This document shows, piece after piece, positions 12,910 through 32,757 of a DNA stretch of 64,000 bases. Below the pieces are notes generated by a model, which was given only the letters and a program-made list of their open reading frames with translations, was not told where the DNA came from and did not search any database. The first letter of the stretch is position 1. Each line of letters opens with the position of its first letter. The translations under genes were made by a program, and so were the position numbers. Source of the stretch: an uncultured Haloferula sp. (lineage in GTDB: Bacteria > Verrucomicrobiota > Verrucomicrobiia > Verrucomicrobiales > Akkermansiaceae). The stretch is taken from positions 1 to 64,000 of the forward strand of contig CBFGTS010000010.1 in assembly GCA_965652295.1 (NCBI GenBank). The letters run 5' to 3'.

Positions 12910-15345
12910 TTATGGCGGGGAGATTTCCGAAATGTTGAGCCGCAGGAACCGCCGGGCCTCGTCCGCGACGGTCACCTCGGACTTCCGCCACTCAAGGGGA
13001 GGTTCGCTGGAAACGGCCGCGTCGGTGAGGTCGTCCCAGTCCATGAGGTTGATCGATCCTTCGACCTTCAGCAGGACGTCGGTGGCGAGGAGATTCCGAG
13101 GGAAATTCAGCCGGAAGGTCCCGTCGGCCATATCCACGGAAACCGGATCGGCCTCAGCCGCCCGCGGATCGGTTCCGGTGGCGTACTCGTAAAGGTTCTG
13201 GCGGCCGTCACCGTCGGGATCGGCTTGGTTTCCCCATAGACCGGCTTCCAGTCCGGCATCCGCAAGTTCGCCCGCGGAGAAATGCTCCGTCCTCCATCCC
13301 TGGATGGCCGATGGGGCGTCGACTTCCGAAACGACGACCTCCATGGCCCCGATGTAGGCGAAGCCGCCCGCCACCGTGAGCATGTCGACGAAGACCTGGC
13401 CATAGGCATCCGGCCGAACCCCCGGAATCACCACGACTTCATCGTCGTTCCCATCGTAGGTGCCATTGCTGCCGATATCCGCGCCACTCGTCTGCAGCTC
13501 GGCAACGTGGATCCCGGACCCGTAAATCGAGTATTCCGTGGTGCGGACCTGGGCGTTTTCCCGGGTGGCGAAAATCCGGAACTCATAGGACAGGGCGGGA
13601 TCCAGGCCGGTCAGCATGAAACCGCCCGGTGAGTCATCATCGCCGCCGCCATCGAGGTCGTCCGCGGTGGAAAAGAAATAATCCTCCGTGGCGGTTTCGA
13701 TCGCGAGGTCTCCGAGCAGGACGTCGCTGGGGCCGTTGACGCCGAACAAGCCTCCGTTCCGCAAGCCATTGACCGAGAAGCCGCCGGTGATGATCCACCG
13801 CACTCCGGTGGATTCTCCATCGGCGGTGACGATCCCGTTCTTGTGCTCGCCGGCATTGATGCCCGCGCCGCCATTGATGCCATACCAGTTGTTCCAATGG
13901 TTCCCGTTGGAATCAGGGCTCGGGGTGTCGTGGCCGTCGATCTGAAGCACGTCGTCGGGCCCGAAGTCGAACAGCAACCGATCGCCCGCTGTGAGTCCCT
14001 CGCCGGAATAGGCGGGTTTGTTTGGCGGAACCACCGCCTCCACCGCCGGCCGGATGACTCCCAGCCACTCGGCGTAACCCGCACGGTTCAGGTGGATCGG
14101 ATCCACGTAGAGCGCGTCGAGGTCCTCCGGGCTCAGGTTTTCAAACAGGGCGGGGAGGTCGATGTAATAGGTGTTCGGGTCCGTATCGGCGGTGGCCTGA
14201 ATGAGGCTGTTGGCCGTCAGGCGCGCGTCCGTGGTGCCCGCGTTCGCCTGGGTCCGGGTCACGCCGAGGTAGAAAAAGGGAACGTCCGGCATTTGTCGGC
14301 GGAGCAGCATCAGGAAGGTCCGGAAATCTTCGTGCACCTGCTCGCCGCTGCGGCCGCCGCTGAGGTCGTTGGTGCCCGCCCACATGACGATCGCCGATGG
14401 CTGGTAAGGTTCCACGATGTGAGGGATGGCCGCGTCCATTTCCGCGAGCCACGACCCGCCCCAGGCGCGCTGGACGACGTGGTAGTCCGCAAAATCGCGC
14501 GTCACGGATTCCCACCGGCGGATGCTGGAGCTGCCGATGAAAAGCACGGAGCCCTGTTCGGGGGGATCGATCTGGTCCTGATTGACCCAGGCGGAAAGAT
14601 GCCCCGGAGCGGCACCGGGAATCTCGGGCACCACGTCCTCTTCCACGATCTCCATCAACCCGAGGTAGGCGAAGTCTCCTTCGGCGATGGTCAGGGTGAG
14701 GGTCACCGAGCCGTTCGTGTCCGCCTGCACGTCGTCGAATTGGAGCAGCGTGTCGTTGTTTCCGTTCGGTCGCTCCGCACTTCCAGAGCCCGGGCCGGAG
14801 GTTTGCAGGATCTGTTGTTGCTGCCCGCTGGCGGCTTGAATCGTATAGATCGAGCGCCGCACCGACGGCGTATCGCGGGTGCCGAAAAAGCGGAATCGGT
14901 AGAGCCGGTCGGGTTTCAGGTTGGAAATGGTCAAGGTTCCGCTTCCTCCGCCGTTACCGCCGTTCTCGACAAAGAAGTAGTCCTGGGTGGCGGTGGCGAC
15001 CGCCAGATCTCCGAGCAGCGCCGGATCGGGATCGAGCAGCCCGCCATTGAAGATGCCGTTCGAGCGCCAGATTCCGCCGGAAAGGGTGATGCCGATCGGG
15101 GTCGGAGTGTTGTCCGTTTCGACCAGGTTCGGCACCGACGAACCCGCGGGTTGTTCGAAATCGGCCGTGCCCATGTTGTTCCAATACCGGTCTTGGGCGT
15201 CGGGACTGGAGGTCGGCGCACCGTCCGTTCCGTTGTTCCGTCCGAAATCGACCAAGATCGTGCCTGCTTGTGTATACGATCCGGCCAGTAAAATCGCGAG
15301 GCAAGCAGCTACGGAGGCTTTCCTCAACCTTGGGTTGTTTTTCAT
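12910..15345 (-). CDS. Secreted SGNH/GDSL esterase flanked by two copies of an uncharacterised ~190-aa domain, with C-terminal FxRL domain
   Basis: Signal peptide from MKNNPRLRK; SGNH blocks FIGSSSIRRW, RAWGGS, WAGTNDL, DPIHLNRAGY; repeated DFG...W(N)N...NGGL...LLGDLA..TAT.DYFF modules; ends RRFLRLNISEISPP. Confidence 0.85.
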   Translation of the reverse strand: MKNNPRLRKASVAACLAILLAGSYTQAGTILVDFGRNNGTDGAPTSSPDAQDRYWNNMGTADFEQPAGSSVPNLVETDNTPTPIGITLSGGIWRSNGIFNGGLLDPDPALLGDLAVATATQDYFFVENGGNGGGSGTLTISNLKPDRLYRFRFFGTRDTPSVRRSIYTIQAASGQQQQILQTSGPGSGSAERPNGNNDTLLQFDDVQADTNGSVTLTLTIAEGDFAYLGLMEIVEEDVVPEIPGAAPGHLSAWVNQDQIDPPEQGSVLFIGSSSIRRWESVTRDFADYHVVQRAWGGSWLAEMDAAIPHIVEPYQPSAIVMWAGTNDLSGGRSGEQVHEDFRTFLMLLRRQMPDVPFFYLGVTRTQANAGTTDARLTANSLIQATADTDPNTYYIDLPALFENLSPEDLDALYVDPIHLNRAGYAEWLGVIRPAVEAVVPPNKPAYSGEGLTAGDRLLFDFGPDDVLQIDGHDTPSPDSNGNHWNNWYGINGGAGINAGEHKNGIVTADGESTGVRWIITGGFSVNGLRNGGLFGVNGPSDVLLGDLAIETATEDYFFSTADDLDGGGDDDSPGGFMLTGLDPALSYEFRIFATRENAQVRTTEYSIYGSGIHVAELQTSGADIGSNGTYDGNDDEVVVIPGVRPDAYGQVFVDMLTVAGGFAYIGAMEVVVSEVDAPSAIQGWRTEHFSAGELADAGLEAGLWGNQADPDGDGRQNLYEYATGTDPRAAEADPVSVDMADGTFRLNFPRNLLATDVLLKVEGSINLMDWDDLTDAAVSSEPPLEWRKSEVTVADEARRFLRLNISEISPP

Positions 15346-15392
15346 AGAGGGTATCGCTACCCAATTCGCCGGGCTGAAGCCTGTCCAGAATA

Positions 15393-15402
15393 TTGTATAC
15401 AA
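15393..15402. promoter_or_regulatory. GntR (MatR/MdcY-type) operator TTGTATACAA upstream of the SGNH esterase
   Basis: Perfect 10-bp palindrome about 48 nt before the ATG at 15345; identical copies at 18077 and 18853. Confidence 0.8.
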
Positions 15403-15410
15403 AACGAACT

Positions 15411-16886
15411 TCAGCGGAAGATGTTCGCGAGTTCTCGTTTCGCGACCTTTCCCATCGCATTGCGCGGAAGCGCGTCCAGATGCCTGAGTTTGCGTGGCAG
15501 TTTGTAGGCGGAAAGCCGCGTCGCTCCCCACTCCCTGAGATCGTCCAGCTCGGGCATTTTTTCTCCTGTCGGCACGATGGCCATGGCGACGATTTCCCCC
15601 CACACGTCATCCGGCAGCCCGAGCACCGCGCACTCGGACACGGAAGGGTGGTCCAGATAGACCGCTTCGATCTCAAGGGCCGAAAGCTTGTAGCCGCCGC
15701 ATTTGATGATGTCCACGGAGAGGCGGCCGAGGATCCGGTAGTAGCCGTCTTCCAGGATCCCGAGATCGCCCGTGCGGAACCAGCCATCGACGAAGGCTTT
15801 CCCGGTTGCCTCCGGCTGGTTCCAGTATCCGCTGAACAAGGCGGGTCCACGAACCTGGATCTCGCCGGGCTCTCCCGTGCCGGTGACGTCTTCGCCGTGT
15901 TCGTTGCGAAGCCGCACCTCGACGCCGGGCAGTGGCTGCCCCACGGTGCCGCAGCGGCGTTCACCGTGGTAGGGATTGGAGAGAATCATGCCCGTTTCCG
16001 TCATGCCATAGCGCTCCAGCAGCACTTGTCCGGTGAGCCGGAGCCAGCGTTCGTGGAGGGACGGGGGAAGCGCCGCCGAGCCCGAGACCATCAACCGCAG
16101 ATGGCGGAAACCCTCGACCGCCCGAGGATCGGTGCCGCGTTCCAAGCGCTGCGCCAGCTTGGCATAGATCGTCGGCACCGCCATGAAGACGGTGAACGCC
16201 CCGTCGGCAAGTCGGGCGAGAACCGCATCCGCCTCGAAGTGCGGAAAGGTTTCCACGCACGCGCCGGACCACAACGCACAGCTCTGGACGTTGATGATGC
16301 CATGTACGTGATGCAGCGGCAGGAACAGCGGGATCCGGTCGTCCGGGCGCCACTCCCAGGCCTCGCACAGCGCCGAGATCTGGGCGGCGAGGGCACCATG
16401 GGTCGTTACCACGCCTTTCGGCCTGCTGGTGGTGCCACTGGTGTAGAGGATCATCGCCGGCTCCTTCGCCGGGACCTCCGGCAACGGCCGCGGGTCGGCG
16501 TGGACCAGCCGTGAAAAGGATGTCCAGCGGGTGCCAGCCGGCAGGGCTGGGGGTGGCGTTTCGGCATCCGTGACGAACCAGCTCGCTCCGGTGTCCTCCA
16601 GCACGTAGTCGCGCTCATTCCGGGTCGCCGAGCCGGACACGGGGACCGCCACTCCGCCCGCCCGCCAGATGGCCCACTGCATCGCCACGTGGTGGAAGCC
16701 TGCCGGGATCTGGAAGGCCACGCGTTCGCCGTGCAGCGACGGGTTTTCGCCGAGCAGGGACGATGCGATGATCCCGGAGGTTTCGAGCAGATCGGCGTAG
16801 CGATGGAGGGTCGCGCCGTCCCTGAGGGCGATCCTGCCGGCGTGGCGCATGGCGCGTGCGATGATCGGAAGCGAATCGGATGACAT
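15411..16886 (-). CDS. matB: Malonyl-CoA synthetase (MatB-like acyl-CoA synthetase)
   Basis: YTSGTTSRPKG, LPLHHVHG, FMAVPTIY, SGSAALP, ERYGMTETGM, GWFRTGD, LPRNAMGKV; adjacent to madLM. Confidence 0.85.
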   Translation of the reverse strand: MSSDSLPIIARAMRHAGRIALRDGATLHRYADLLETSGIIASSLLGENPSLHGERVAFQIPAGFHHVAMQWAIWRAGGVAVPVSGSATRNERDYVLEDTGASWFVTDAETPPPALPAGTRWTSFSRLVHADPRPLPEVPAKEPAMILYTSGTTSRPKGVVTTHGALAAQISALCEAWEWRPDDRIPLFLPLHHVHGIINVQSCALWSGACVETFPHFEADAVLARLADGAFTVFMAVPTIYAKLAQRLERGTDPRAVEGFRHLRLMVSGSAALPPSLHERWLRLTGQVLLERYGMTETGMILSNPYHGERRCGTVGQPLPGVEVRLRNEHGEDVTGTGEPGEIQVRGPALFSGYWNQPEATGKAFVDGWFRTGDLGILEDGYYRILGRLSVDIIKCGGYKLSALEIEAVYLDHPSVSECAVLGLPDDVWGEIVAMAIVPTGEKMPELDDLREWGATRLSAYKLPRKLRHLDALPRNAMGKVAKRELANIFR

Positions 16887-16889
16887 GGT

Positions 16890-17651
16890 TCAAACCAGGG
16901 AGCGGACGATGAAAAACAGCAGGGAAGGGCAGAGAAGGCAGCCGAGTCCGGTGTAAAAGGTGGCGGTCATCGCGCCGTAGGGAACGAGCTTCGGGTCGGT
17001 GGCGGCCAGGCCACCGGCGACGCCGCTGGTGGTTCCCATCAGCCCGCCGAAAACCATCGCGGAGCGGGGGTTGTCGAGACCGATCCGCTTCGCGAAGAGA
17101 GGGGTGAGGATCATCACGAGGATGGATTTCACCAAGCCGGTGGCGACGCTCAGTGCGATCACCTCGGACTCCGCGCCCAAGGCGGATCCTGTGACGGGCC
17201 CCACGATATAGGTCGCCGCGCCGGCCCCCAGAGTGGTCATGCTGACCGCGTCGCGGTATCCCGCCGCATAAGCGACCACGGCACCCACGGCGAAGGACAA
17301 GATCACCCCGACCAGCAGCGACACCACGCCGCCCGGACCGGCCTTGCGGAGTTCGTCCAGCCCCACGCCCATCGCGGTGGCGACGATGGCGATGTCGCGG
17401 ATCATCGCACCGCCGAGCAGGCCCACGCCAGCCAGCAGCGGGACATCGGCCAAGCCGCGCGTGCCTTCCGTCGCGATGCCGCCCCAGTAGGCGAAAGCCA
17501 AGCCGAGGAAGATCGCAATCGCCGAGCCGTGGATCCTTTTCCGCGTGAGCCGTGCGGAGACGGAGTAGGAAAAAAGCATCACTGCGCCCACAAACACGAA
17601 GGCCACCACCAGAGGGTATTTGCCGCAGATTTCGTCCAGGATCTCCCTCAC
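16890..17651 (-). CDS. madM: Malonate transporter subunit MadM
   Basis: RIHGSAIAIFLGL, GGAMIRDIAIVAT, GAATYIVGPVTG, GTTSGVAGGLAATDPKLVPYGAMTATFYTGLGCL. Confidence 0.95.
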   Translation of the reverse strand: MREILDEICGKYPLVVAFVFVGAVMLFSYSVSARLTRKRIHGSAIAIFLGLAFAYWGGIATEGTRGLADVPLLAGVGLLGGAMIRDIAIVATAMGVGLDELRKAGPGGVVSLLVGVILSFAVGAVVAYAAGYRDAVSMTTLGAGAATYIVGPVTGSALGAESEVIALSVATGLVKSILVMILTPLFAKRIGLDNPRSAMVFGGLMGTTSGVAGGLAATDPKLVPYGAMTATFYTGLGCLLCPSLLFFIVRSLV

Positions 17652-18034
17652 GGATCACCTCCTTCTTGCGTCTTCGAAGCGTCCGCCCCGATGCGAGTGA
17701 TCCAAGGCACCAGAGCGAAGCACAAGAGCACCGCTCCCGCCCCGGCCACCAACGCGACCCACCCGCCCAGCACCGCCGCGCGCACATTCTGGGAGGCTGC
17801 CATCGCCACCGTCACCGGGATGTAGATGGAGCTCCAGAACAGCACTCCGCCCTCCGTGACCGGGGGAAACCGGTGAGACTTCCTCAGTCGGTCGCTGGAA
17901 GCCATCAGCAGCAGCATCGCCATGCCCACTCCGCCCACGTCCGCGTCGATCCCCAGGATCCATCCCAGGCAGCGCCCCGCCAGTAATCCGACGAGGAGGC
18001 ATCCACAAAGCAGAGCGGTTCCGTAAATGGCCAT
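17648..18034 (-). CDS. madL: Malonate transporter subunit MadL
   Basis: MAIYGTALL, DADVGGVGMAMLLL, FWSSIYIPVTVAMAASQNV; overlaps madM by 4 nt. Confidence 0.95.
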   Translation of the reverse strand: MAIYGTALLCGCLLVGLLAGRCLGWILGIDADVGGVGMAMLLLMASSDRLRKSHRFPPVTEGGVLFWSSIYIPVTVAMAASQNVRAAVLGGWVALVAGAGAVLLCFALVPWITRIGADASKTQEGGDP

Positions 18035-18076
18035 GAAATCAATCCGGAGGTCTCTTTGGCTATGAGGGTCGAGCTA

Positions 18077-18086
18077 TTGTATACAA
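18077..18086. promoter_or_regulatory. GntR (MatR/MdcY-type) operator TTGTATACAA in the divergent madL/gntR promoter region
   Basis: Perfect palindrome between the starts at 18034 (-) and 18136 (+). Confidence 0.85.
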
Positions 18087-18135
18087 GTGAAAAGGCAATT
18101 GGAGAACGCCGGATGACACTCTAGCATCTGCCCCC

Positions 18136-18795
18136 ATGGCGAGGAAAAGCGCTGACGACATCCGGAAAACGCTCGAAGAACAAATCCTCGAAGGCGAGTG
18201 GCAGAATGGAGAACGGCTGGACGAGGTCCTGCTTGCGGAGCGCTTCGGTGTCTCGCGCACCCCGCTTCGCGAAGCCCTTCGCATGCTGTCCGGCTCGGGG
18301 CTTATCGAGCTGGTTCCCCGCCGCGGAGCCTTCGTCCGCCACCCGGACATGGTCGAGCTGGTCGAGATGTTCGAGGTCATGGCCGAACTCGAAGCTTTCT
18401 GTGGCCGTCTCGTCGCCCGCCGCATCACGGCCGCCGAGTTGGTCGCGCTGTCCGCCTCTGCCTCCGCCTGTGAAGCTGCCTGCGGAAGGGATGACCCGGA
18501 TGCCTATTACATTTCGAACGAGCAGTTTCACCAAACCATCTACCGGGCCGCCGGAAACGCCTTTCTGACCTTGGAAACCACGCGCCTTCAAAAAAGGCTG
18601 CGCCCTTTTCGCCGTATGCAGCTCCGCCTCGCGGGAAGGCTCCGCCAGTCTTTGGACGAGCACGGGGTGATCCTGAGGGCCCTTCGTGATCACGACTCGG
18701 AGACCGCGGCGAGCGCCCTGCGGTCCCACGTCGCGGTCCAGGGGGAGAAATTCCATCTGCTTCACTCCGCTCTCGAATCCTCGCAGAGGAGCTGA
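18136..18795 (+). CDS. GntR/FadR-family (FCD) regulator, probable malonate regulator (MatR/MdcY-like)
   Basis: LAERFGVSRTPLREAL HTH; FCD motifs NEQFH and SLDEH; divergent from madLM-matB. Confidence 0.9.
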   Translation: MARKSADDIRKTLEEQILEGEWQNGERLDEVLLAERFGVSRTPLREALRMLSGSGLIELVPRRGAFVRHPDMVELVEMFEVMAELEAFCGRLVARRITAAELVALSASASACEAACGRDDPDAYYISNEQFHQTIYRAAGNAFLTLETTRLQKRLRPFRRMQLRLAGRLRQSLDEHGVILRALRDHDSETAASALRSHVAVQGEKFHLLHSALESSQRS

Positions 18796-18850
18796 GTTTT
18801 TCCGAAGCCCGCGGCCGATTCCTACCTTAGTGGGCGAGAACTCGCGGATT

Positions 18851-18864
18851 AATTGTATACAATT
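18851..18864. promoter_or_regulatory. GntR operator AATTGTATACAATT upstream of the PEP-CTERM gene
   Basis: Perfect 14-bp palindrome about 96 nt before the ATG at 18960. Confidence 0.85.
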
Positions 18865-18959
18865 TCGTTGACGGAGGGTGTCGATTTCGTCATTCCGCTG
18901 GGAATCAGGGAATATGACGCCCTGTCCCGTATACAGACCAACCCACAAAACCCCTCCCC

Positions 18960-19748
18960 ATGAACAACCCAAGACTCCCAAGCAGCGTCAACCGATGGAT
19001 CGTCGCCGGTCTCACCTGCTTCTGCGGCCAAGCCATGGCTCTCACCGTGCTCGTTGATTTCGGCAACCACGGCGGCGGCAACGGCAATCCAACCGTCAAT
19101 CCCGATGGCAACGGGAACTACTGGAACAGCCTTTCCAACGGCGAGTTCCAGATCCCGGCCAGCAGCGCGTTTGGCAGCTTGATCGATACCGGCAACCAAG
19201 CGACCACCATCAGCATCACCACCACCAGCATCTGGCGCTCGAACGGAGTGTTCAACGGCGGCCTGCTGAGTCCGTCGTCCGCGCTGCTCGGCGATTTTGC
19301 CGTGGCGACCGCCACTCAGGATTACTGGTTCACGGAGGCCGGCGGCAGCCCGGCCTTGAACAACGAGTCGACGCTCACCATCGGTGGTCTCGACCCCGCT
19401 AAAACCTACAATTTCCGACTTTTCGGTACCCGGAATTCCGACGCCGGAACGCGCGAAACCACCTACACCCTGGAGGGTAGCAACGGCCCATTCGCCGCCA
19501 GCCTGATCACCACCGGGCTCAACATCGGCAGCGACGGGATCTATGATGGCAACGACGACACCATCGTGAGCATCAACGGCGTTGCCCCGGATGCCTTGGG
19601 CGGCATCGATCTCACCCTTCAGGCGGTGCAGGGGAACTTCGGCTACCTCGGCATCATGGAGATCTCCGAAGTTCCCGAGCCGGGCTCGACGCTGCTGGTT
19701 GCCGCGGCCGGCATCCTCGGTCTTGCCCGTCGCCGCCGTAGCGCCTGA
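18960..19748 (+). CDS. PEP-CTERM surface protein made of one copy of the domain repeated in the SGNH esterase
   Basis: Signal peptide; C-terminal VPEPGSTLLVAAAGILGLARRRR; IWRSNGVFNGGLLSPSSALLGDFAVATATQDYWF matches esterase IWRSNGIFNGGLLDPDPALLGDLAVATATQDYFF. Confidence 0.9.
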   Translation: MNNPRLPSSVNRWIVAGLTCFCGQAMALTVLVDFGNHGGGNGNPTVNPDGNGNYWNSLSNGEFQIPASSAFGSLIDTGNQATTISITTTSIWRSNGVFNGGLLSPSSALLGDFAVATATQDYWFTEAGGSPALNNESTLTIGGLDPAKTYNFRLFGTRNSDAGTRETTYTLEGSNGPFAASLITTGLNIGSDGIYDGNDDTIVSINGVAPDALGGIDLTLQAVQGNFGYLGIMEISEVPEPGSTLLVAAAGILGLARRRRSA

Positions 19749-20887: not shown

Positions 20888-23800
20888 TCAGGGCTCCGCG
20901 CCTTCGACCAGGCGGAAGAACCGCCGGGGCTGCGAGGCGGTGTCCACCGGCAGGTCGACCGTGTGGCTGGCGGCAGGTGCGGTGAACTCGGATCCGACGA
21001 GCGGGGCGAGGGTGGTGAGGCCGGTGCCGGCTTCGAGGTGATACACCGATCCCGACTTCAGGTTTCCGAAGTTCAGCGAGAACGTGTCGCCACTTTGGGA
21101 AAGCGTGACCGAGACGGTGCGCGGCGGTGCCGAGGGAATGGAGTTCCCGTCGTTCGGGTCGCTGCCGGCGAGCGCTTCCTCGCCGTCGGTGAAGCCGTCG
21201 TTGTCACTGTCGTCGTCGAAGGGATCGGTGCCGGTGATGGTGAACTCTTCGAGGTTCGTCAGGTCGTCGCCGTCGGGGTCGTCCTCCGCGCCCATGTCGT
21301 CGAGGTGGGTGACCCCGGCGAAAGAGAACTCCCAGGCATCATCGAGGCCGTCGCCATCCGCATCGCCCGGAGGTGCGGCCGGGCCGGCGTTCATGCTGGC
21401 GAGCAGATCGGCGGTGCCGAGCGTGCCACTCCAGATGCGGAACTCGGAGATGCGGCCGGTGAAATCACGGTCGCCGAACTCGACCGAGGCCCCGAGCGCG
21501 AACTGGTTCATATCGATCTCTTCCAGCGATTTGCCGCCGAGCGAGGACGAGACCTGTTGGAACGAGCCGTTGGGTCGGCCGACATAGATGACGAGTTCGT
21601 CATCCACCGGATCCCATACGCCGGCGAGATAATAGGGAGTGCCGCCCTGAGCGAGGGCCAGGCCGTTGTAGGTGGTCGTCGAGTGGCTTTCATCGTCGCC
21701 ATCGCTGCAGGAGACGCTGACACCGAAGCCTTCGTTGCCCCGGCGGGGCGTGAGGTCCATGTAACCTCCTCCCGCGCCATGGCCGGCCATGAATGCTTTG
21801 GACCAGATTTGGGCGGTGTCCTGCACCACCCAGCACTCGATCGTCACGCCGTAGGGGTTCCGCAGCGAGAAGGAAAGGGAGGCCATCGCGTCGCTCTCGG
21901 CGCGGGCATAGTGGCTGCGCGGGGTGCCGCCGGGGAGGACGAGTTCGCCGGAGGAGACGCTGGCGTTGCCGACCAGAGTCAGGTCGGCATGGCCCACGGA
22001 GTCGGCCGTGTCCTGGTCGAACGCCCAGCGGTGCAGCATGACGGGATCGGGAACCTCGGGAATGCTGGCGCTGTCGAGCGGGTCGGAGCCTTTCGTGAGT
22101 TCGAAGCCATCGCCGAAGTTGTCGCCATCGGAATCCCGGACGAGGGGATTGGTGCCGTTTTGGTACTCCTGGAGATTGGTGAGGTCGTCCTGATCGTCGT
22201 CGAGTGCGGCCACCAGGTCGTCGAGGTGGTTGACACCGGCGAAGGAGAATTCCCATTCATCCGGAAGGCCGTCGAGGTCGATGTCACCCGGCGGCTGCCC
22301 AGGACCGGCGGCGAAGCTGGCTGCCACGTCCTCGGCACCCAGTGAGCCGCTCCAGATCCGGAACTCGCGGATTCTTCCGCCGAAGTCCGACTGGCTGGTG
22401 AACTCGACCGAGCGGCCGAGGTAGAATTCATTGATCACGACGTCGCTGAGCTTCTTCCCGCCCATGCTGGTGGTGAAGGTCTGCAACGGCGCGCCCACCT
22501 CGCCGACGTGCATTGTGAGTTGGTCGGTGATCGGGTCCCAGGTGCAGGCCATGTAGTATTCCTGATCCGTGTAGAGGGCGCCGTCCTGGAGGCCGGGCAT
22601 GTAGATGCCTTCGCGATAGATCTCGCTGCCATTCGTGTGGATGGCCATGTCGTTGAGCTGGGCACCGGTCTGGCGCCGCGGGGTTACGGAAAGGTAGCTA
22701 CCATCGAAGCCGCGGCCCGCCATGAAGAGCTTCGCCCAGTTCCGTGCGAAGCGTTGCTGGAACCAGAATTCCATCGTCACGGCGTAGGACTGGTTGAGCG
22801 TTTCAGCCAACTCGATGAGTTGGTTGCCTGTTGTCGCCGCGTAGTCGCGCTGCTTGCCGCCGCCGGGGAGGAAGAGGGAGCCATTGCTGACGGCCGCGTT
22901 TCCGACCATGCCGAAGTCGGCTGAGCCCACGCTGTCGGTGGCGTCGATCTCGAACGAGTAGCGGTGCGCCAGCACGGCGGACGGGGTGCTTTCCGGGTCA
23001 TTCGGATCGGTGCCACGGCGGCGCTCGATGTAGTCGGAATAGAGATCTCCATCCGTATCGGCCAGCGTGGGATCGGAACTCATGACTCCGTGGTTGAACT
23101 CCTCGGCGTCGGACAGCCCGTCGCCATCGAAGTCGCCGGTTCCCGCCCCCGGGCCGCTGCCCGCGGGCAGGTTGCCGTCGAGATCGGAAAGCGATGAAAT
23201 GCCCGCGAACGAAAGCTCCCAGGTGTCGGCCAAGCCGTCGATGTCGCTGTCATCGGTGGGGTTTGGCCCGGCAGCGAAATGGGCGGCCACGCTGGCGTCG
23301 CCGAGTGCACCCTTCCAGATGCGGAGTTCATCGATGGAGCCCTGGAAATCGGGATCCGCGAAAGAAACCGCCGCGCCGAGGTGGAATTGGAGCAGGTCCA
23401 GATCCGCAAGTGAGCGTCCACCCATGCTGGTGGCTGGGAATTTCGACACCGTGCCGCCGGCCGGCCCGAGGTGCAGGACGAGCTGGTTCTCGGCCTCGTC
23501 CCAGATGGCGGCGAAGTAGTAGGGCGTGTTGTTGGCGACGCTGGCCCCCGTGGTGAGGAGATTCACCTCGTCCGCACCGCTGGTGCGGATGGACATGCTC
23601 GAAGTGTCGTCGCCCTCGCCCCGCCGGGCGGTCAGGTCGAGATATTCGGTGCCGGTCGGGTTCCCGCCCATGAAAACCTTGGCCCAATCCTGGGCGACGG
23701 CCTGGGTGAACCAGCCTTCGATCGTGATCGCCTGGCTACCTTGGATGGTCGCCGCGAGTTCCGTGAGAGAGCTGCCAAGGGCCTCGGCGTGGTTCACGCG

Positions 23801-25900
23801 GGTGCCCCCGCCCGGCAGGTTGAGCTGCCCGTCCGAGACGTCGGCACTGCCCTTGAGGCTCAGATCGGCGGTGCCGATCCCATCCTGGGCATCGGCATTG
23901 AACGAATACCGGTGAGCCAGCGTGACCGGGGGCTGCGCACCTTGGTCGAGCACGGTGATCACCACCCGCACGACTTCATTGAGGGCGGCATTGGTGGGGT
24001 CGACAATGTTCACGAACAACTCGAAGTCAGCGGGATCGTTCCAGCCGGAGGACAGTGCGGTGAAATCCAATGCCGAGGGACGGGCGACCGAGACGATGCC
24101 GGTGGGGCCGATGAGAAAGGCACCGCTCTCGTTTCCCGAGGCGATGCTGAAAGCGAGGGTCGCGGTGCCGTGATCGTTTTTCGCACGCACCTGACCGAGT
24201 TGGGTGCCGATGGGTGCGAATTCCCGGACGGTGAATCGCTCGGGAGACACGGCGTTGCCGATCGTGCCGTTGATTTCGTAGTGGCCGATCGAGCCGTAGT
24301 CGGAGTAGCCGGTGCCGAGCACCGAGCCGCGGCCGAGGCCGTCCACGTGCAGCGTGTAGGTCCCTTGCGGGAGGCTGGCCTGGGTCAGCGTGGCGGCGAG
24401 TTCCGCATCGGGGTTCGAGGAGGCGATGACGGTGCCTGTATGGTCCCGGAGCTCGACGCTGAGGTCGATGTTCGGCCCCTCCGCCACCGGTTCGAAAAAC
24501 AGAGAGAGGTTGCCGATGGCGGTGGTGGTGAAGGTGAAGACATCGACGTCACCGCGCGAGCTGATGATGCCGTCGTCATCCACCGCGCTGCCATAAAGCT
24601 CCAGCGGGCTGGCGGTGCCGGCGGTGTTGCCGTGATCGTCGGCCCGGACATCAACGGCGTTATGGCTGTTGATGACGATCAGGTCATCCTCGGTGTTGTT
24701 GGCGTTGCTGTATTCGCCGGCGGACCACTGGGTGAGGTTCTCGTAGTAGCCGACGCCCATGATCGGAGCCCAGCCGGTCTCGCCATCGCCGTGGCCGCCG
24801 TAGTACTCGGTGCCGTCGTTCTGGCCGTCGTGGCGGAGGCCGAGGGTGTGGCCCAGCTCGTGGGAGATGACCTCCGCCGCCGATTTTCCCGTGGAGTAGA
24901 ACGCCCAGCAGGGGGTGTCTCCGTCCCAATTCCACGAACCGATGAAGGCAACTCCGCCGGCGCCCGGTGCGGCGTCCGTGGTGGGCGTGATGATGCAGCG
25001 CTGGCGTGAGCTCTGCGGGGCGTCGAGGTAGACCTGGAGGTCGGTGGTGACGTTGATATTGAAAGGCGCGAAATCTTCAGCAACGCGTGCCCAGACGCGG
25101 TAGATCTGGTTGTTCGAGGCTCCGGAGGGGGCGGCATCGACGGTGACGTTCGACCAGGACTCGAACGGCCCCTCCTCGCCATCGAAGTCGAGGTAGATCA
25201 CGCCCGTCGCGCCGGGCAGGCTGTTCAACGGAATCACCCCGTTCTGGTAGTCGGGGATGTCCACGTCTGTCGGATGCTCCAGGGGGACGAGCGGCTCCGG
25301 CTCAAGGTCCGGCGCGGGAGGCAGGCTCATGCAGCTCACCTCGTCGGCGTCCTTGTGAATCAGCACGGGCTCGCCATCTTCGCCTTCCTTCATGGAGTAG
25401 GCATCCGGAGCGTCGGTGAACCGGATTGCTCCTTCATAGGCCCCCGACGGTGTGCCCTCCGCCTGACGGATGAAAACAAAGATGCCCTTTGACGGCTCCA
25501 ACACGCGGCCCGAGACGAACTTCCAGCCGCCATCGTCGCCGGCACGGAACTGGTCGACGACCATCTCCGCCTGGCGCCCGTCCGGCAGGGCGAGCTTCAC
25601 GTTGCGCCCCGGTGTCCAGGCATCGAAAGCGTCCTTTTCCAGGCTGCGGCGGACCGGCTGCACTGAAACGGTCTGCAAGCCGCGCTGTTTCGGAGCGGCG
25701 TGTTGATGACCCGGATGATTGCAGCCCGCCGTGGTGCAGGACGATGTTTCAAGTGAGCGTGCGGCTGGTCGGGAAACGCCTTCAGCTTCCACCGCTGTCG
25801 CACGCGGGCCGGTGGTCTTTTTGGGAAGAAAGCCGGGAGCAATCGCGAGACCGACGCCGAGAGCGGCGAGGGCCAGAAGGGAGGTCCTCTTGGGAGACAT
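20888..25900 (-). CDS. Large secreted metzincin metalloprotease with PPC/cadherin-like region, three LamG-like modules, Ca-binding DxDxDG repeats and FxRL tail
   Basis: HELGHTLGLRH zinc motif, Met-turn APIMG; three HR(Y/W)(S/A)F...E(L/F)RIW modules; ends RRFFRLVEGAEP. Confidence 0.85.
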   Translation of the reverse strand: MSPKRTSLLALAALGVGLAIAPGFLPKKTTGPRATAVEAEGVSRPAARSLETSSCTTAGCNHPGHQHAAPKQRGLQTVSVQPVRRSLEKDAFDAWTPGRNVKLALPDGRQAEMVVDQFRAGDDGGWKFVSGRVLEPSKGIFVFIRQAEGTPSGAYEGAIRFTDAPDAYSMKEGEDGEPVLIHKDADEVSCMSLPPAPDLEPEPLVPLEHPTDVDIPDYQNGVIPLNSLPGATGVIYLDFDGEEGPFESWSNVTVDAAPSGASNNQIYRVWARVAEDFAPFNINVTTDLQVYLDAPQSSRQRCIITPTTDAAPGAGGVAFIGSWNWDGDTPCWAFYSTGKSAAEVISHELGHTLGLRHDGQNDGTEYYGGHGDGETGWAPIMGVGYYENLTQWSAGEYSNANNTEDDLIVINSHNAVDVRADDHGNTAGTASPLELYGSAVDDDGIISSRGDVDVFTFTTTAIGNLSLFFEPVAEGPNIDLSVELRDHTGTVIASSNPDAELAATLTQASLPQGTYTLHVDGLGRGSVLGTGYSDYGSIGHYEINGTIGNAVSPERFTVREFAPIGTQLGQVRAKNDHGTATLAFSIASGNESGAFLIGPTGIVSVARPSALDFTALSSGWNDPADFELFVNIVDPTNAALNEVVRVVITVLDQGAQPPVTLAHRYSFNADAQDGIGTADLSLKGSADVSDGQLNLPGGGTRVNHAEALGSSLTELAATIQGSQAITIEGWFTQAVAQDWAKVFMGGNPTGTEYLDLTARRGEGDDTSSMSIRTSGADEVNLLTTGASVANNTPYYFAAIWDEAENQLVLHLGPAGGTVSKFPATSMGGRSLADLDLLQFHLGAAVSFADPDFQGSIDELRIWKGALGDASVAAHFAAGPNPTDDSDIDGLADTWELSFAGISSLSDLDGNLPAGSGPGAGTGDFDGDGLSDAEEFNHGVMSSDPTLADTDGDLYSDYIERRRGTDPNDPESTPSAVLAHRYSFEIDATDSVGSADFGMVGNAAVSNGSLFLPGGGKQRDYAATTGNQLIELAETLNQSYAVTMEFWFQQRFARNWAKLFMAGRGFDGSYLSVTPRRQTGAQLNDMAIHTNGSEIYREGIYMPGLQDGALYTDQEYYMACTWDPITDQLTMHVGEVGAPLQTFTTSMGGKKLSDVVINEFYLGRSVEFTSQSDFGGRIREFRIWSGSLGAEDVAASFAAGPGQPPGDIDLDGLPDEWEFSFAGVNHLDDLVAALDDDQDDLTNLQEYQNGTNPLVRDSDGDNFGDGFELTKGSDPLDSASIPEVPDPVMLHRWAFDQDTADSVGHADLTLVGNASVSSGELVLPGGTPRSHYARAESDAMASLSFSLRNPYGVTIECWVVQDTAQIWSKAFMAGHGAGGGYMDLTPRRGNEGFGVSVSCSDGDDESHSTTTYNGLALAQGGTPYYLAGVWDPVDDELVIYVGRPNGSFQQVSSSLGGKSLEEIDMNQFALGASVEFGDRDFTGRISEFRIWSGTLGTADLLASMNAGPAAPPGDADGDGLDDAWEFSFAGVTHLDDMGAEDDPDGDDLTNLEEFTITGTDPFDDDSDNDGFTDGEEALAGSDPNDGNSIPSAPPRTVSVTLSQSGDTFSLNFGNLKSGSVYHLEAGTGLTTLAPLVGSEFTAPAASHTVDLPVDTASQPRRFFRLVEGAEP

Positions 25901-27366: not shown

Positions 27367-28572
27367 TCAGAAACGTGATAAAACGTTGATGATTTCCGAT
27401 ATGTCGAGGTGCTCCTGCTCGAAGCGGCCCTTGGTGCCACGGGATTTCATCTCGTGGAGCAGTGGATGGAGGTCGGCAAGCGTGGTGCCGGCCAGGAGGC
27501 GGTCGAGCGTGCGTCGTTCGGCGGCGGTGAAGGGCTCGCCTCCCTGAGTGGGCGACATGAGGAAGGGCTGGAAATGGCGACCGGTACGCTCGCGTAGGTC
27601 GCGCAGGATGTCGAAGCCGGCGGGGTCGGTATCGCCGAAATGATGACATGACAGATCGGCTGGGAGTTTTTCCAACAGCAATCGCGTGGCGGATCCGGGG
27701 AAGCTGGTGTGGATGAGCAGCACGCCGGGATTCCGGCGGGCGAGTTCGAGGAAGACGCTTTCGTTTTCGACGGTGAGAAGGGCGCGGCTGCGGACTTCGG
27801 GGATGGCGCGATCGAGGTCGATGGCGGAGAGGGAAACCGGGCCGGCCAGTGGGGTGAGGTCGAGCGAGGCACCGGAGAAATGGAGCACCAGCGGCCCGTG
27901 GACGGTGACCGAGCGCGGGACATCGAGGATGCCGTAGGTTTCGAGTGTGGTGTCCTCCCGAGTGGTGAGGGCGCGCAAGGCGGCCTCCAGGCGGGGCCGG
28001 AGGGATTCGAGGGCTTTCGAGTCGCCGGTGAGGCGGACGCTGGCGTAGCGGATGAGGCTTTCGTGCGGCCAGTTGAGGACCCCGTGAAGGGCGTCGAGCA
28101 GCCGCTGGTTGGCGTCCGGATCCTCGCGGGCGAAAGGGTGGACGGACGCCCCGGAAAGAGCGGCTGCGGCGAGGGAGTCGAGCCAGTTTTTCCAAGCCTC
28201 GGGATCGGGCACCGCAAGCTGGCGGGCCTTGAGGAAGACGTCCGCGAGTTGCTGGCGGGCGGCTGCTGGCGAACGGAGGCCGAGCATTTCGAAGAGCCAG
28301 GTTTCGCCGGTCGCGGCAGAGAGTCGGACGCGCTGGGGAAGGCCGGAGCGTGGGTGGCGGTCGATGCGTAGTGCTCCGTTGGAAGTGGCCTCGGCGGTGG
28401 CAAGATCGCGCTCGGCCAGCTCGCGGGCATCGCCATCATCCAGTCCGGCTCGGCGGAGGAGCCTTTCGTAATCGATGGTGAAATCTCTTTCCGCCCCCGT
28501 GCGACCGGCGGCGGAAGCGCGGTAGATTTCGGCGAGGGCTTGGAGAGCGGTTTTCATCACCACGACGATCAT
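27367..28572 (-). CDS. jetD: Wadjet nuclease JetD (Toprim/DUF2220-like); start 28572 or 28557
   Basis: LTVENESVF, HFGDTDPAGFDI, FEQEHL Toprim motifs; directly after the SMC gene. Confidence 0.85.
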   Translation of the reverse strand: MIVVVMKTALQALAEIYRASAAGRTGAERDFTIDYERLLRRAGLDDGDARELAERDLATAEATSNGALRIDRHPRSGLPQRVRLSAATGETWLFEMLGLRSPAAARQQLADVFLKARQLAVPDPEAWKNWLDSLAAAALSGASVHPFAREDPDANQRLLDALHGVLNWPHESLIRYASVRLTGDSKALESLRPRLEAALRALTTREDTTLETYGILDVPRSVTVHGPLVLHFSGASLDLTPLAGPVSLSAIDLDRAIPEVRSRALLTVENESVFLELARRNPGVLLIHTSFPGSATRLLLEKLPADLSCHHFGDTDPAGFDILRDLRERTGRHFQPFLMSPTQGGEPFTAAERRTLDRLLAGTTLADLHPLLHEMKSRGTKGRFEQEHLDISEIINVLSRF

Positions 28573-28580
28573 GCCACGGC

Positions 28581-31500
28581 TCAGGTGGCGGCGGCTTCGG
28601 CGATCCACTTCTGGCCTTCGGGAGAGTCGCGGTAGAGGACGACGGGGACGTTTCTTACGCCAACCCTCGTACCCCGACGCTCTTCCTTCCGGGAGATGAC
28701 GATGAGCTCGTCGCACTGGCTGAAGGCGTAGGGGATGTTGCCGCTGGACATGGAGAACATGCCCTGGAGATCGAGTTCGGACATGGCCTCGATGCAGTTC
28801 TGGATGCGCTCGCCGGAGAGTTTGGAGAAGGCCTCGTCGATCGGCACGAGGGCCAGCGAGGGCTCCTTGCGGCGGCTTTCGTGGCGGTTGTAGGCGTGGA
28901 GGTAGCTGGCGAGGATGGCGACGAAATACGGGCTCTGGTTCTCGCCGCCGCTCATCTTGCCGCTCTGCTTGTCGACGCTGATCGAGCGGCCGTCGGGATC
29001 GCGGATGTCGGTGACGGTGAGGTCGTAGTCGAAATACTGGCGGTAATCCAAAAGCCGTGCGGCTTCGGGGCTGTTGGCGTTCTGGACGAGGAGGGTGAGG
29101 AAACTTTTAAGGGCGTCCTGCAGCTCGCCGCTCATGCTGGCGAAGAACAGCTCGTCCTCGTGGTGGAGGGCGTTGAGGTCGATGAGATCGCGGTAGATCT
29201 TGAAGTCGGGATTCGGGCGGCGCTCGATCTTGTAGCGGTCGTGGCCGATGGGCTTCTTGAGCTGGTGGTTGAGGAGCGAGATGATGTTCTCGACGTTCTT
29301 CAGGGCCTGCTGCATGCGGGTGAGGACCTGGGTGCGGAAAAGCATCTCCCACTGCTTCTTGGCGATGGTGGACTTCTTCTCGTACTCGGGGATGTTCGCG
29401 CCCTCGATCTGGGCGAGTCGGGCTTCGTAGGGAGCGGCGTCGGTGCCGTCCTCGGGGAGGTCGTCGAACTTCGGAGCAAAGGTTTTCTTGAAGTCGAGCA
29501 TGGCGACCTTCAGCTCGCCGGTGGCGTCCTTGGCGGCGAGTTCGGCGGCGACGGCGGCTTTGGCGAACTCCTTGGCGAGGACGTCGGACGCGGGGGTGTA
29601 TTCGGCGGCTTCCTGTTTCCAGGAAAGGTAGCGTTCGTGGTGCTGGTGGATGTCGATGCGGAGCTTCGCCTTGGAAAATTCGTCCTCGCGACGGCTGGCG
29701 GTTTCCATGAGCGAGTCGAGGAGCTTCTCGGTGTCCTGGATTTCGCGGACGCGGCCCTTGCGGAGGATGGAAGTACGCTCGGCATCGTAGGACGTGAGCT
29801 GCTCGGCGAGGACCTCGATGTCATCGCGCAGACGGTCGAACTCGTCGGTGGCGATGGCCTGGAGCTGGTCCATGAGTTCCTCGTGCTGTTCCTGCTTTTT
29901 CGGCAGGTCCTCGATGCGGATGAGTTCCTTGATGACGTCCTCGTGCTCGGGGATGGCGGCGGCGCGTTCGCGGATGAGGCGCTCGACCTCCATCTCGATG
30001 GGTTCGAGCCGGCGGATGGAGGCATCGATCTCGCCGAGGCGCTGGCGTTTGATTTCGAGCTGCCGCTTGAGTCCTTCCTGGCCGATGAAGGGGGTGCCGT
30101 TGTACGGTGCGGGCCGTACCAAGGTGCCGCGGCGTTTGTGGAGACCGTCGGGGGCGACGGCGGAGGGGTGGCGGTCGAGCTGGGTGGCATCGGCGACGCG
30201 GACGAGATCGCCGAAGAGCGAATCGATGCAGGCGCGGGCGTCGTCGTCGGTGGTGGAAAGAAGCTCGGCGAGGGTGCCTTTTTTTGCCCCGGGCTTGGAG
30301 GAGTGGATGGCTTTGAGCTCGATGAGCCGCTGCGGCCCGGCGTGGACGAGGTCGGCGGCGGGGAGCTGGCGGAGAATGTTGCTGGCTTCCTCGTAGTGGT
30401 TCGGCGCGACGAGGACGGCGAATTTTTCCTCGAAAACGACCTCGGCGGCGGCGCGCCAGTTTTCATCGGTGACCTCGCAGATTTCGCGCAGGGCGCGGGG
30501 CGGGGTGTCGTTGGGGAGGAGGGGGAGCTGGGATTTCAGCGCGGCAAGGAGCGGCTGGGGGCCGGGGGAAACGCCGCGCTGGAGGAGATCGATCTGGGCC
30601 TGGAGGTCGGATTTTTCCGACCGCAGCCGCCGGAGTTCCTCGCGGTCGGGCTCGAAGCGGGAGCGGATGGTCTTGACGGTCTCGTTCGCAGCCTCGGCGA
30701 GGAGGGAAAGGGACGAGGCGGTTTGCTCGCGCTCGCAGGAGTCGAGGAACTCGATGGCGTGCTTGAGTTTGGTGGTATCGACGACGGGATCGAGCGGGGC
30801 CTTGTGGACCTGCTCCATCCAGCCGCGGGCGGACTTGATGCGCTTGCCGAGGCCGCCGTCGAGGCGGGTGGCGCGGTCGCGGAGTTGCTCGATCTCGGCT
30901 TCGAGCTTGGCGATGTCGTCGGCGAGTTTTTTGTAAAGCCGGCCTTCGGAGGACTCGTTGAGGAGGGCGACGAGCGACTCGCGTTTGCGCTGGGTGGATT
31001 CGGTGAGGTCGGCGAGTTCGTTGAGGCGGGCTTCGTCGGCCTGGTTGTCGGTCTTGAGCTGGTCGAGACGGGTGCGGGTGCGCTCGGCTTCGCCGGCGGC
31101 ATGGGTGTGGGCGAATTCGGCGGCGAGGTAGGTGGCGACGGCGTGGTCTCGCTCGGACTCCCGAAGGGTGGTGGCGAGGTCGCGGATGCGGGTGAGGCGT
31201 TCGAGCTGGGCTTTGAGACTGGCGAGTTCGCGTTCGTAGGATTGGAAATCGCGGAAGGAGGAGACGACGTCTTCGACCGGCACGGCTTCGGCGGGGAGGA
31301 CGAACTGGCGGCAGAAGTCGTCGAAGGACTTGAGGTTGGTGAAGGACATCGCGCTGGGAAGCAGGCGCTGGAGGACGTCCTTGTTGAAGTTGAGGTGGCT
31401 GGGGTTGGCCATGTCCCGCAGGTATTCGCGGCCGGAGGAGAAGAGGCGGCCGCCGTGGGATTCGATGGTGCGCTTGAAGGCACCGAGCGGGCTGGGCCGG

Positions 31501-31961
31501 GGTTTGCCGTCCTCGGATTCGGTGAGGAAATCGGATTTCTGCAGGGAAGCGGGGCAGTAGAAGGGCGTGGTGGAGCCGTCGTTTTCCGCGGCGGAGCGGA
31601 ATTCGAAGCGCAGACCCCAGGTTTCCACGCGCTTGTCATCGGGCCAGGTGAACTCGGCTGCGATGTAGGTGGTGACGCCTTTGTCGTGGAAGTACTGGGC
31701 GACGCCATTCTCCTCGCGTTTGGTGTCGAGGAGGCAGTAGCCCTTGATGGTGCGGTCGCTTTTGCTGCCGGTAGCGGAGCGGTTGAAGTGGTGGTGGGCG
31801 CGCTCGGGACCGACGAGGATGAGCATGAGCAGGTCCATGAGGATGGACTTGCCGGAGCCGGTGACGCCGGCGAGGACGAGATTGCCGCGGACCGGGAGGG
31901 AGTCGCGGTAGCCGTACCAGTTGAGGGCGTGGAGTTGGGTGAGGCGGATGGCTCGGCTCAT
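28581..31961 (-). CDS. jetC: Wadjet SMC-family ATPase JetC
   Basis: Walker A GVTGSGKS, long coiled coils, LLDYRQYFDY, signature MSGGE, Walker B PIDEAF. Confidence 0.92.
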   Translation of the reverse strand: MSRAIRLTQLHALNWYGYRDSLPVRGNLVLAGVTGSGKSILMDLLMLILVGPERAHHHFNRSATGSKSDRTIKGYCLLDTKREENGVAQYFHDKGVTTYIAAEFTWPDDKRVETWGLRFEFRSAAENDGSTTPFYCPASLQKSDFLTESEDGKPRPSPLGAFKRTIESHGGRLFSSGREYLRDMANPSHLNFNKDVLQRLLPSAMSFTNLKSFDDFCRQFVLPAEAVPVEDVVSSFRDFQSYERELASLKAQLERLTRIRDLATTLRESERDHAVATYLAAEFAHTHAAGEAERTRTRLDQLKTDNQADEARLNELADLTESTQRKRESLVALLNESSEGRLYKKLADDIAKLEAEIEQLRDRATRLDGGLGKRIKSARGWMEQVHKAPLDPVVDTTKLKHAIEFLDSCEREQTASSLSLLAEAANETVKTIRSRFEPDREELRRLRSEKSDLQAQIDLLQRGVSPGPQPLLAALKSQLPLLPNDTPPRALREICEVTDENWRAAAEVVFEEKFAVLVAPNHYEEASNILRQLPAADLVHAGPQRLIELKAIHSSKPGAKKGTLAELLSTTDDDARACIDSLFGDLVRVADATQLDRHPSAVAPDGLHKRRGTLVRPAPYNGTPFIGQEGLKRQLEIKRQRLGEIDASIRRLEPIEMEVERLIRERAAAIPEHEDVIKELIRIEDLPKKQEQHEELMDQLQAIATDEFDRLRDDIEVLAEQLTSYDAERTSILRKGRVREIQDTEKLLDSLMETASRREDEFSKAKLRIDIHQHHERYLSWKQEAAEYTPASDVLAKEFAKAAVAAELAAKDATGELKVAMLDFKKTFAPKFDDLPEDGTDAAPYEARLAQIEGANIPEYEKKSTIAKKQWEMLFRTQVLTRMQQALKNVENIISLLNHQLKKPIGHDRYKIERRPNPDFKIYRDLIDLNALHHEDELFFASMSGELQDALKSFLTLLVQNANSPEAARLLDYRQYFDYDLTVTDIRDPDGRSISVDKQSGKMSGGENQSPYFVAILASYLHAYNRHESRRKEPSLALVPIDEAFSKLSGERIQNCIEAMSELDLQGMFSMSSGNIPYAFSQCDELIVISRKEERRGTRVGVRNVPVVLYRDSPEGQKWIAEAAAT

Positions 31962-32029
31962 GAAGCTAGGGGCGGGAAAGGCTGCCGGGGGTTTTGGACC
32001 GGGATGGATAAGATGGAGGGGATGTTTTT

Positions 32030-32686: not shown

Positions 32687-32689
32687 GAG

Positions 32690-32724
32690 GAAAGCGGAAA
32701 GTGGAAAGGAGAAAGGAAAAAGGG
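32690..32724. repeat. Five imperfect 7-mer tandem repeats GAAAG(C/T/G)(G/A) in the jetA-jetB spacer
   Basis: gaaagcg gaaagtg gaaagga gaaagga aaaaggg read directly. Confidence 0.65.
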
Positions 32725-32733
32725 TGAGGGCAT

Positions 32734-32757
32734 GGCGGATGGAATCCGCCGCCACGG
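32734..32757 (-). repeat. REP-like hairpin CCGTGGCGGCGGATTCCATCCGCC directly after the jetA stop
   Basis: GGCGGAT/ATCCGCC stem with GTGG head; sister of 10862-10887. Confidence 0.5.

Follow-up and report, generated by a model that had tools for sequence, protein, structure and literature searches.

Why would a bacterium keep a predicted secreted esterase and a surface protein beside its malonate transporter, each behind a copy of one predicted operator? The question is raised by positions 12,910 to 19,748 of a 64,000-nucleotide stretch of DNA, here called the window, which is the first part of contig CBFGTS010000010.1 of an uncultured Haloferula sp. (Verrucomicrobiota). Genes for malonate import and activation (madL, madM, and a matB-like gene) and a divergent regulator gene lie between genes for an SGNH esterase and a PEP-CTERM protein, and the palindrome TTGTATACAA occurs three times among them. 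Our preferred answer, to which sequence comparisons lead us to give a probability of roughly 0.55, is that an extracellular de-O-malonylase and a surface glucan binder feed MadLM-MatB. The features are listed below (aa, amino acids; X, a domain described further on).

12910..15345, minus strand: predicted secreted SGNH/GDSL_2 esterase, 811 aa from the ATG at 15345, signal peptide recognized by eye
14638..15261, minus strand: X domain 1 of the esterase (aa ~29-236), an unnamed malectin-like β-sandwich
14011..14598, minus strand: SGNH domain of the esterase (aa ~250-445), with intact blocks (S272, G297, N326, D415, H418)
13318..13980, minus strand: X domain 2 of the esterase (aa ~456-676)
15411..16886, minus strand: MatB-like malonyl-CoA synthetase, an AMP-binding ligase with an ERYGMTE motif
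16890..17651, minus strand: madM, malonate transporter subunit (TIGR00808, 370 bits; cut-off 236)
17648..18034, minus strand: madL, malonate transporter subunit (TIGR00807, 132 bits; cut-off 113)
18136..18795, plus strand: GntR/FCD regulator; its orthologues on Roseobacter-group plasmids are encoded divergently from matA/matB
18960..19748, plus strand: PEP-CTERM surface protein, 262 aa, with one X domain (aa 28-237) and an anchor (aa 238-260)
15393..15402: palindrome 1, predicted operator, with minus-strand TGGACA (15387-15382) 5 bp further on
18077..18086: palindrome 2, predicted operator, in the madL/gntR intergenic region (divergent genes)
18853..18862: palindrome 3, predicted operator, with a -35-like TTGACG (18868-18873) 5 bp further on

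A preliminary description of this DNA had reported the palindrome at 15393, 18077, and 18853, with no other copy in the window, and both the coordinates and shuffling agree. All three copies are exact, the window holds no further site at one mismatch or fewer, and three copies were reached in 0 of 100 shuffled windows (mean 0.11, maximum 1). The genome-wide scan that it had asked for finds just three exact copies in the whole genome (4.37 Mb, 35 contigs, 63.5% GC), all of them at the mad locus, against an expectation of 0.04–0.17 under Markov orders 1–5. Site 1 lies 47 bp 5′ of the esterase ATG and 8 bp 3′ of the matB stop codon, and site 3 lies 97 bp 5′ of the PEP-CTERM ATG. Six one-mismatch sites occur elsewhere in the genome, and those on contig C5 sit among unrelated glycoside-hydrolase-like genes. 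One of these (G000:C5:220732) falls in the gap 5′ of a gene whose multidomain product, 2060 aa long, is predicted to be secreted; the gene belongs to a glycoside-hydrolase-like cluster, and the position of the site may be due to chance.

The gene identities that had been proposed (SGNH esterase, ligase, madM, madL, divergent GntR, PEP-CTERM protein) hold against NCBIfam and Protein Data Bank (PDB) matches. The adjacent madL and madM both exceed the NCBIfam equivalog cut-offs. The best PDB match of the MatB-like ligase is the malonyl-CoA ligase 3nyq (E 1.3e-90), and its top five solved relatives are all MatB; it scores under the NCBIfam cut-offs for PRK07787 and PRK07514. Its ERYGMTE motif presumably has the role that it has in MatB-type synthetases. 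The esterase carries SGNH blocks I, II, III, and V, with the Ser-Gly-Asn-His set plus Asp. What had been overlooked is that the esterase and the PEP-CTERM protein are homologous.

The regulator fits a known type. That is, a GntR/FCD protein is encoded divergently from malonate transport and activation genes, and a TTGTATACAA-type site stands at the genes of the putative regulon. Among plasmid-borne proteins, those most similar to the regulator (~57%) are encoded on Roseobacter-group plasmids. All three of the loci examined pair such a gene divergently with genes for malonyl-CoA synthase and decarboxylase, and each intergenic gap contains an exact TTGTATACAA. In their divergent GntR/FCD regulator and malonate transport or activation genes, Rhizobium matRABC, Acinetobacter mdc, and Roseobacter gntR-matAB are all like the window's locus, and in the Roseobacter-group loci the palindrome is identical. 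We take TTGTATACAA-type sequences to be the operators of MdcY and MatR. According to the passages seen of PMC11472048, both proteins regulate malonate catabolism negatively. The window's locus differs from matRABC and mdc in having two extracellular proteins behind the common site, and MatA and MdcA were not found. Extracellular proteins in malonate regulons were not found in the literature passages covered, a scope outside which the gene lists of Suvorova 2012 fall. On a Pseudosulfitobacter plasmid (L270:7859), a second exact site lies 5′ of an operon for an ABC transporter, a gamma-glutamyltransferase, and an M20 peptidase beside matAB, possibly another extension of the same regulon.

Is the shared site more than a local accident? 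The preliminary description had the extracellular genes co-regulated with the malonate genes, and conservation of the site argues for this. We searched 61 genomes for madM, 35 of them in the genus, and found it in 13 of the 61, including 11 of the 35. Strong X matches occur in 10 of 11 madM-positive but only 3 of 24 madM-negative genus genomes, although such kin are not independent. The mad locus includes an X-SGNH gene preceded by an exact site in 8 of the 11, and its gene order takes at least two forms. Across the 10 genomes with both madM and X, 13 of 14 X-gene units have a site (11 exact, 2 with one mismatch), and these units include unlinked copies in genomes G025, G032, and G009. By contrast, none of the 5 X units of madM-negative genomes has a site (one mismatch or fewer, within 400 bp; one start approximate). 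An unlinked type-2 esterase of G009 with an X-like domain also has an exact site; it was found by its motif and stands outside the count of 14.

Exact sites are otherwise rare (0–3 per genome), and in madM-negative relatives they lie mostly within or beside unrelated genes. Those of the X-gene units persist across species whose proteins are 55–80% identical, survive rearrangements, and are found at unlinked copies too. In 9 of the 17 X promoters listed, TTGAC begins exactly 5 bp past the site, and TnGACA is found in three more. Therefore, the site seems to sit just upstream of a likely -35 box, although a sigma-70 scan finds a consensus promoter at none of the window's three sites and the -35-like hexamer is visible by alignment alone. 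The site 5′ of madL is less conserved, being absent in G021, G032, and L201. In one further mad locus (G023:C13, L038), madL, madM, the regulator, the sites, and X-SGNH are kept, and matB is absent from the 20 kb fetched. Taken as predictions from sequence, binding of the regulator to all three sites is likely, and extension of the regulon to both extracellular genes is very probably real.

What, then, do the two extracellular proteins do? X is a domain of ~200 aa present in three copies (40–45% identity), one in the PEP-CTERM protein and two flanking the SGNH domain. The esterase runs from a signal-peptide-like N-terminus through X, SGNH, and X to a C-terminal tail of a type that recurs on other long open reading frames of the genome (DxDxDG..N..E...G in 32 six-frame reading frames). 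The PEP-CTERM protein likewise starts with a signal-peptide-like N-terminus, and no catalytic domain was found in it. Structure models were made of X and of the SGNH domain separately. The model of X from the PEP-CTERM protein (mean predicted local distance difference test score, pLDDT, 94.6) is a β-sandwich whose best fold match is the malectin-like domain of a Bacteroides glucuronidase, 6d50 (Z 12.9, root-mean-square deviation (rmsd) 2.9, 148 of 211 residues aligned). FERONIA (Z 12.3) and the N-domain of YxiM (Z 12.1) follow, with Xenopus malectin at just 7.8; Foldseek matches are weaker (TM ~0.35).

X thus has the fold of the malectin/CBM57 group (the 6d50 C-terminal domain, the FERONIA ectodomain, Xenopus malectin), but not its sequence signature. 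No Pfam family reaches the cut-off for the query, the best E among 39 members is 0.0017, and none of the 39 matches the malectin family at E 0.05. A profile search returned 2503 clusters at 50% identity. Among the best 150 X proteins, 89 carry an SGNH domain, 24 of type 1 (the window's subfamily) and 65 of type 2. In an atlas search, the nearest clusters were unnamed, and AGA-YXIM_GBD (0.83) and DUF4886 (0.82) serve as leads only. Distant X-like domains in other Verrucomicrobiota (L180, L181, L182, L187, L188) accompany metallophosphoesterase domains in four of the five scanned, and other distant X-like proteins carry DUF4886 (L177, L186). Sharing a fold is no demonstration of function. X is a candidate new carbohydrate-binding family, and its probable role is to retain an O-acylated glucan outside the cell, at the surface.

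The SGNH domain model (pLDDT 90.1) best matches the sialic acid esterase 7pzg (Z 22.0, rmsd 2.3, 186 aligned), and the top fold matches are hydrolases. B. subtilis YxiM (2o14) likewise joins a galactose-binding-like sandwich, matched by X as above, to an SGNH domain (Z 15.2). Identity to YxiM and similar SGNH esterases is 13–18%, and in the window X is repeated and also stands alone on a PEP-CTERM anchor.

A second link between an SGNH esterase and malonate transport is found in another Verrucomicrobiota family, f12, where 11 of 251 genomes have madM. In 7 of these 11, an SGNH gene without X, with a signal-peptide-like start, lies directly 3′ of madM. Its product and the window's SGNH domain share 31% identity. 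The matB lineage is different (37–42% to the window's; matB was seen in six of the seven), and the linked loci have neither the regulator nor the palindrome. An orthologue scan of 80 f12 genomes, comprising all 11 with madM and 69 without, found the SGNH gene in the 7 and in 3 of the 69. Those 3 follow a MatC-type carrier, recognized by Pfam MatC_N in two and read from sequence in the third, and matB lies 5′ of the carrier in both contigs that extend that far. That is, all 10 orthologues follow a malonate transporter (7 MadM, 3 MatC), across a transporter swap. Nearer relatives in each lineage, f12 paralogues at up to 42–43% and type-1 relatives of the window's esterase at 46–51%, have no known malonate link; therefore, two recruitments are suggested, on pairwise identities rather than a joint tree. 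The linkage lends indirect support to the predicted de-malonylase activity. The f12 operon (L278:8447-13207; L321:117-7913; L323:1-6923) encodes a TonB-dependent receptor, a thioredoxin-like protein, a dicarboxylate symporter, MatB, MadLM or MatC, and the secreted SGNH protein; no GntR was seen in these three.

Put together, the preferred reading runs as follows. The regulator would bind the three sites and so couple madLM-matB to the secreted esterase and the surface protein. With an O-acylated glucan from outside the cell kept at the surface by X modules, the esterase would cut malonyl or methylmalonyl esters from it. MadLM would import the freed acid, and MatB would form the CoA ester. Judged from its gene context, the esterase probably has some substrate from which it cleaves malonyl or methylmalonyl groups. 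The system would extend a known type of malonate regulon by an esterase whose activity may be new and by a module that may represent a new binding family. Literature searches covering listings, the starts of abstracts, and some passages turned up neither this locus nor a bacterial malonyl-glycan esterase.

The glucan is suggested by the company X keeps elsewhere. GH30 genes lie within 10 kb of 11 of 79 X+SGNH loci from genomes, four of them near-identical Bacteroides loci, and near 21 of 79 metagenome loci, a heavily redundant set. In 12 of 12 GH30s tested, the best model was the endo-1,6-β-glucanase BT3312, with 3 exceeding the cut-off. One X-locus GH30 is a BT3312 orthologue (5ngk, E 4.8e-296), and the BT3313-like binding protein there carries X; BT3313 binds 1,6-β-glucan, according to the parts seen of PMC5481569. 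Variants of the Bacteroides 1,6-β-glucan polysaccharide utilization locus BT3309-BT3314 (PMC5481569) thus have X on a BT3313-like protein and an added X+SGNH gene between the gene for that protein and GH3, and the search listing of that paper does not mention an esterase in the described locus. Such gut Bacteroides variants (L130:688-15693; L131, L134, L135, L240-L249, L268-L269) make their X+SGNH protein a candidate glucan de-O-acylase. Type-1 esterases near the window's also lie among GH30 genes (L195-198, L206), on a weakly supported branch (82/75). The window's locus differs from the 1,6-β-glucan locus, defined by GH30_3, GH3, and SusCD: the window lacks SusCD, its SGNH protein is of the other subfamily, and GH30 is absent from both locus and genome (control positive).

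Linear β-1,6-glucans can be found O-acetylated in lichens and as malonic esters in Penicillium luteum, as stated in the portion seen of PMC8140972. Malonylated β-1,6-glucan of the Penicillium luteum type is the best-named candidate substrate, a tentative choice. Equally tentative is the full picture of acyl grazing, where a de-O-malonylase with a new family of glucan-binding modules would strip malonate from fungal malonylated β-1,6-glucan for MadLM-MatB and leave the backbone untouched, a second Verrucomicrobiota lineage having recruited a related esterase separately.

A number of observations weigh against the de-O-malonylase reading or narrow it. Outside the genus, mad genes were found near 0 of 99 X loci (79 in a scan of named genomes, 20 in other Verrucomicrobiota). 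Malonate genes lie near 2 of 79 metagenome X loci, both with the window's architecture. Homologues in Bacteroidota show no connection to malonate. In a test that took 50 of the 79 X+SGNH loci, madM was present in 2 of 50 X+SGNH (type-2) genomes against 5 of 300 in the phylum background (p 0.26), and mdcA was found in 0 of 64, with a silent control. Because madM is not enriched and mdcA was not found in the 64, most family members probably cut other acyl groups, e.g., acetyl; malonyl specificity across the family is not supported, given the unlinked loci and the lack of madM enrichment. By eye, no residue separates the mad-linked from other type-1 esterases (G021 excluded), and in the type-1 tree the mad-linked esterases do not form one clean clade, group counts in that tree having to be discounted because L192, a short contig, carried a mad label without evidence. 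No esterase lies nearby in the mad loci of G026, G038, G048, G249, and 7 Bacteroidota, nor in 4 of the 11 madM-positive f12 genomes. At 1e-30, 36 of 80 f12 genomes contain a member of the f12 esterase's subfamily, and such abundance somewhat weakens the linkage argument. The motif by itself is no proof of malonate control, since the B. subtilis gluconate regulator, which is unrelated, uses the same 10-mer core, as reported in the part of PMC11472048 that was seen.

The backbone is also in doubt. A second X context, with GH99-like and GH97 genes and once an α-1,3-glucanase (5 of 79 genome loci plus G018), points to α-glucans, and most X loci have neither context; the glucan backbone is therefore uncertain. 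Within that context, a recurrent cluster holds GH99-like, GH97, and X proteins with an unannotated domain of ~790 aa (L050:28-8459; L045:8392-12504; L202:1234-3693; L174; L220). The ~790-aa domain, which matches DUF6259 weakly in one member and is sometimes fused to X and SGNH, is a candidate new glycoside hydrolase. No GH99-like gene was found in the window's genome, and among the genomes with both madM and X, GH30 occurs only in G032. As neither GH30 nor a GH99-like gene was found, the cell seems to use just the acyl group and to leave the chain.

The fate of the acyl group bears on the same point. A tblastn search with a real MatA gave no match at E 1 in the genome, which is 98% complete; PF05292 and TIGR01110 (MatA/MdcA) found none, with weak or silent controls, and MatA was found in 0 of 61 relatives, with a silent control. 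AccA is present. An unlinked cluster without the palindrome (G000:C1:262872-273729, L275) encodes a CoA-transferase, Na+-translocating decarboxylase subunits, and methylmalonyl-CoA epimerase and mutase. Na+-translocating decarboxylases of this type can accept malonyl-CoA. Since MatA and MdcA were not found, the malonyl-CoA would be used in fatty-acid synthesis or pass to the Na+-pumping methylmalonyl-CoA decarboxylase, epimerase, and mutase of this cluster.

How else could the locus be read? Fungi secrete malonate, and free malonate from fungi or plants might be a cue that induces glucan-binding adhesins and an acetyl esterase for attaching to or softening a fungal or plant surface. This account, which we find doubtful, would suit the site's presence before non-catalytic X proteins (the PEP-CTERM protein and a three-X protein in G025), its position in G032 and L201 only before X genes and not before madL, and the homologues in glucan loci without malonate genes. 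Acetylated β-1,6-glucans do exist, as noted in what was seen of PMC8140972. The cue account leaves unexplained why a separate SGNH protein without X stands behind MadM or MatC in 10 of 10 cases, and neither a GH30 nor a GH99-like enzyme that could profit from deacetylation was found in the genome.

The preliminary description had favored small plant malonyl-glucosides as the substrate. We now find a polymer likelier, because the X fold is like that of carbohydrate-binding modules and X relatives lie in glucan-degradation loci. In this alternative, which is improbable, the esterase would free malonate from small soluble esters, either plant malonyl-glucosides or methylmalonylated periplasmic glucans of other bacteria, and not from a fungal polymer. 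Small substrates would suit the f12 esterases, which lack X and whose operon also encodes a TonB-dependent receptor and a dicarboxylate symporter. Methylmalonyl substituents have been described on bacterial periplasmic glucans, going by the portion seen of bioRxiv 2020.07.26.208595, and the genome has methylmalonyl-CoA epimerase and mutase. Polymer attack typically involves multiple carbohydrate modules plus a binder anchored to the cell, and the window's esterase has several such module-like domains and an anchored partner. Moreover, its nearest type-1 relatives of known context are in GH30 or GH97 clusters.

Could the linkage be hitch-hiking, a malonate cassette having landed beside an existing esterase, with linkage and sites then inherited within one clade? 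One argument for it is G021, which weighs against the de-O-malonylase reading as well. G021 has madLM-matB, but its SGNH-X gene (64% identical) is elsewhere and without a site, between the genes that flank the window's locus (glutathione peroxidase-like; DoxX-like, Gfo/Idh/MocA), with no cassette there. From this arrangement, the esterase may have been at this position before the cassette arrived. The X linkage is, in addition, confined to one genus and the 2 of 79 metagenome loci. Hitch-hiking is nevertheless very unlikely, as exact sites, otherwise rare, have been kept through the divergence and rearrangements described above and at unlinked copies, and the f12 linkage is separate. Last, that the SGNH protein is an acyltransferase adding malonyl, from imported and activated malonate, to the cell's own surface glycan is hardly credible: SGNH domains can be O-acyltransferases (OatA and PatB are among the fold matches) and neither MatA nor MdcA, the dedicated decarboxylases, was found, but the locus encodes neither a membrane acyl donor nor an exporter, homologues lie in degradative loci, and the top fold matches are hydrolases.

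Two neighbors in the window lie outside the locus. The product of the gene at 20888-25900 (minus strand), 1670 aa long and predicted to be secreted, combines an M12-like metallopeptidase region with a cadherin-like domain and three LamG domains. A four-gene cluster at 27367-34221 (minus strand) includes a gene for a 1126-aa SMC-like protein and is, we assume, akin to Wadjet/MksBEF-type systems; a homologous cluster adjoins the unlinked X-PEP gene of G032.

What would the de-O-malonylase reading mean? Described malonate loci import free malonate. If the reading is true, bacteria also mine ester-bound malonate, by means of an operator-linked secreted esterase. Two testable groups of enzymes are named here for an activity that we did not find in print for bacteria in the literature covered. 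Under the tentative acyl-grazing picture, the window's esterase would be the first bacterial polysaccharide malonyl-esterase and the first known consumer of the fungal malonyl decoration. More broadly, X accompanies SGNH esterases and is repeatedly found in loci for fungal glucans, which suggests that the acylation of fungal glucans matters to the organisms that degrade them.

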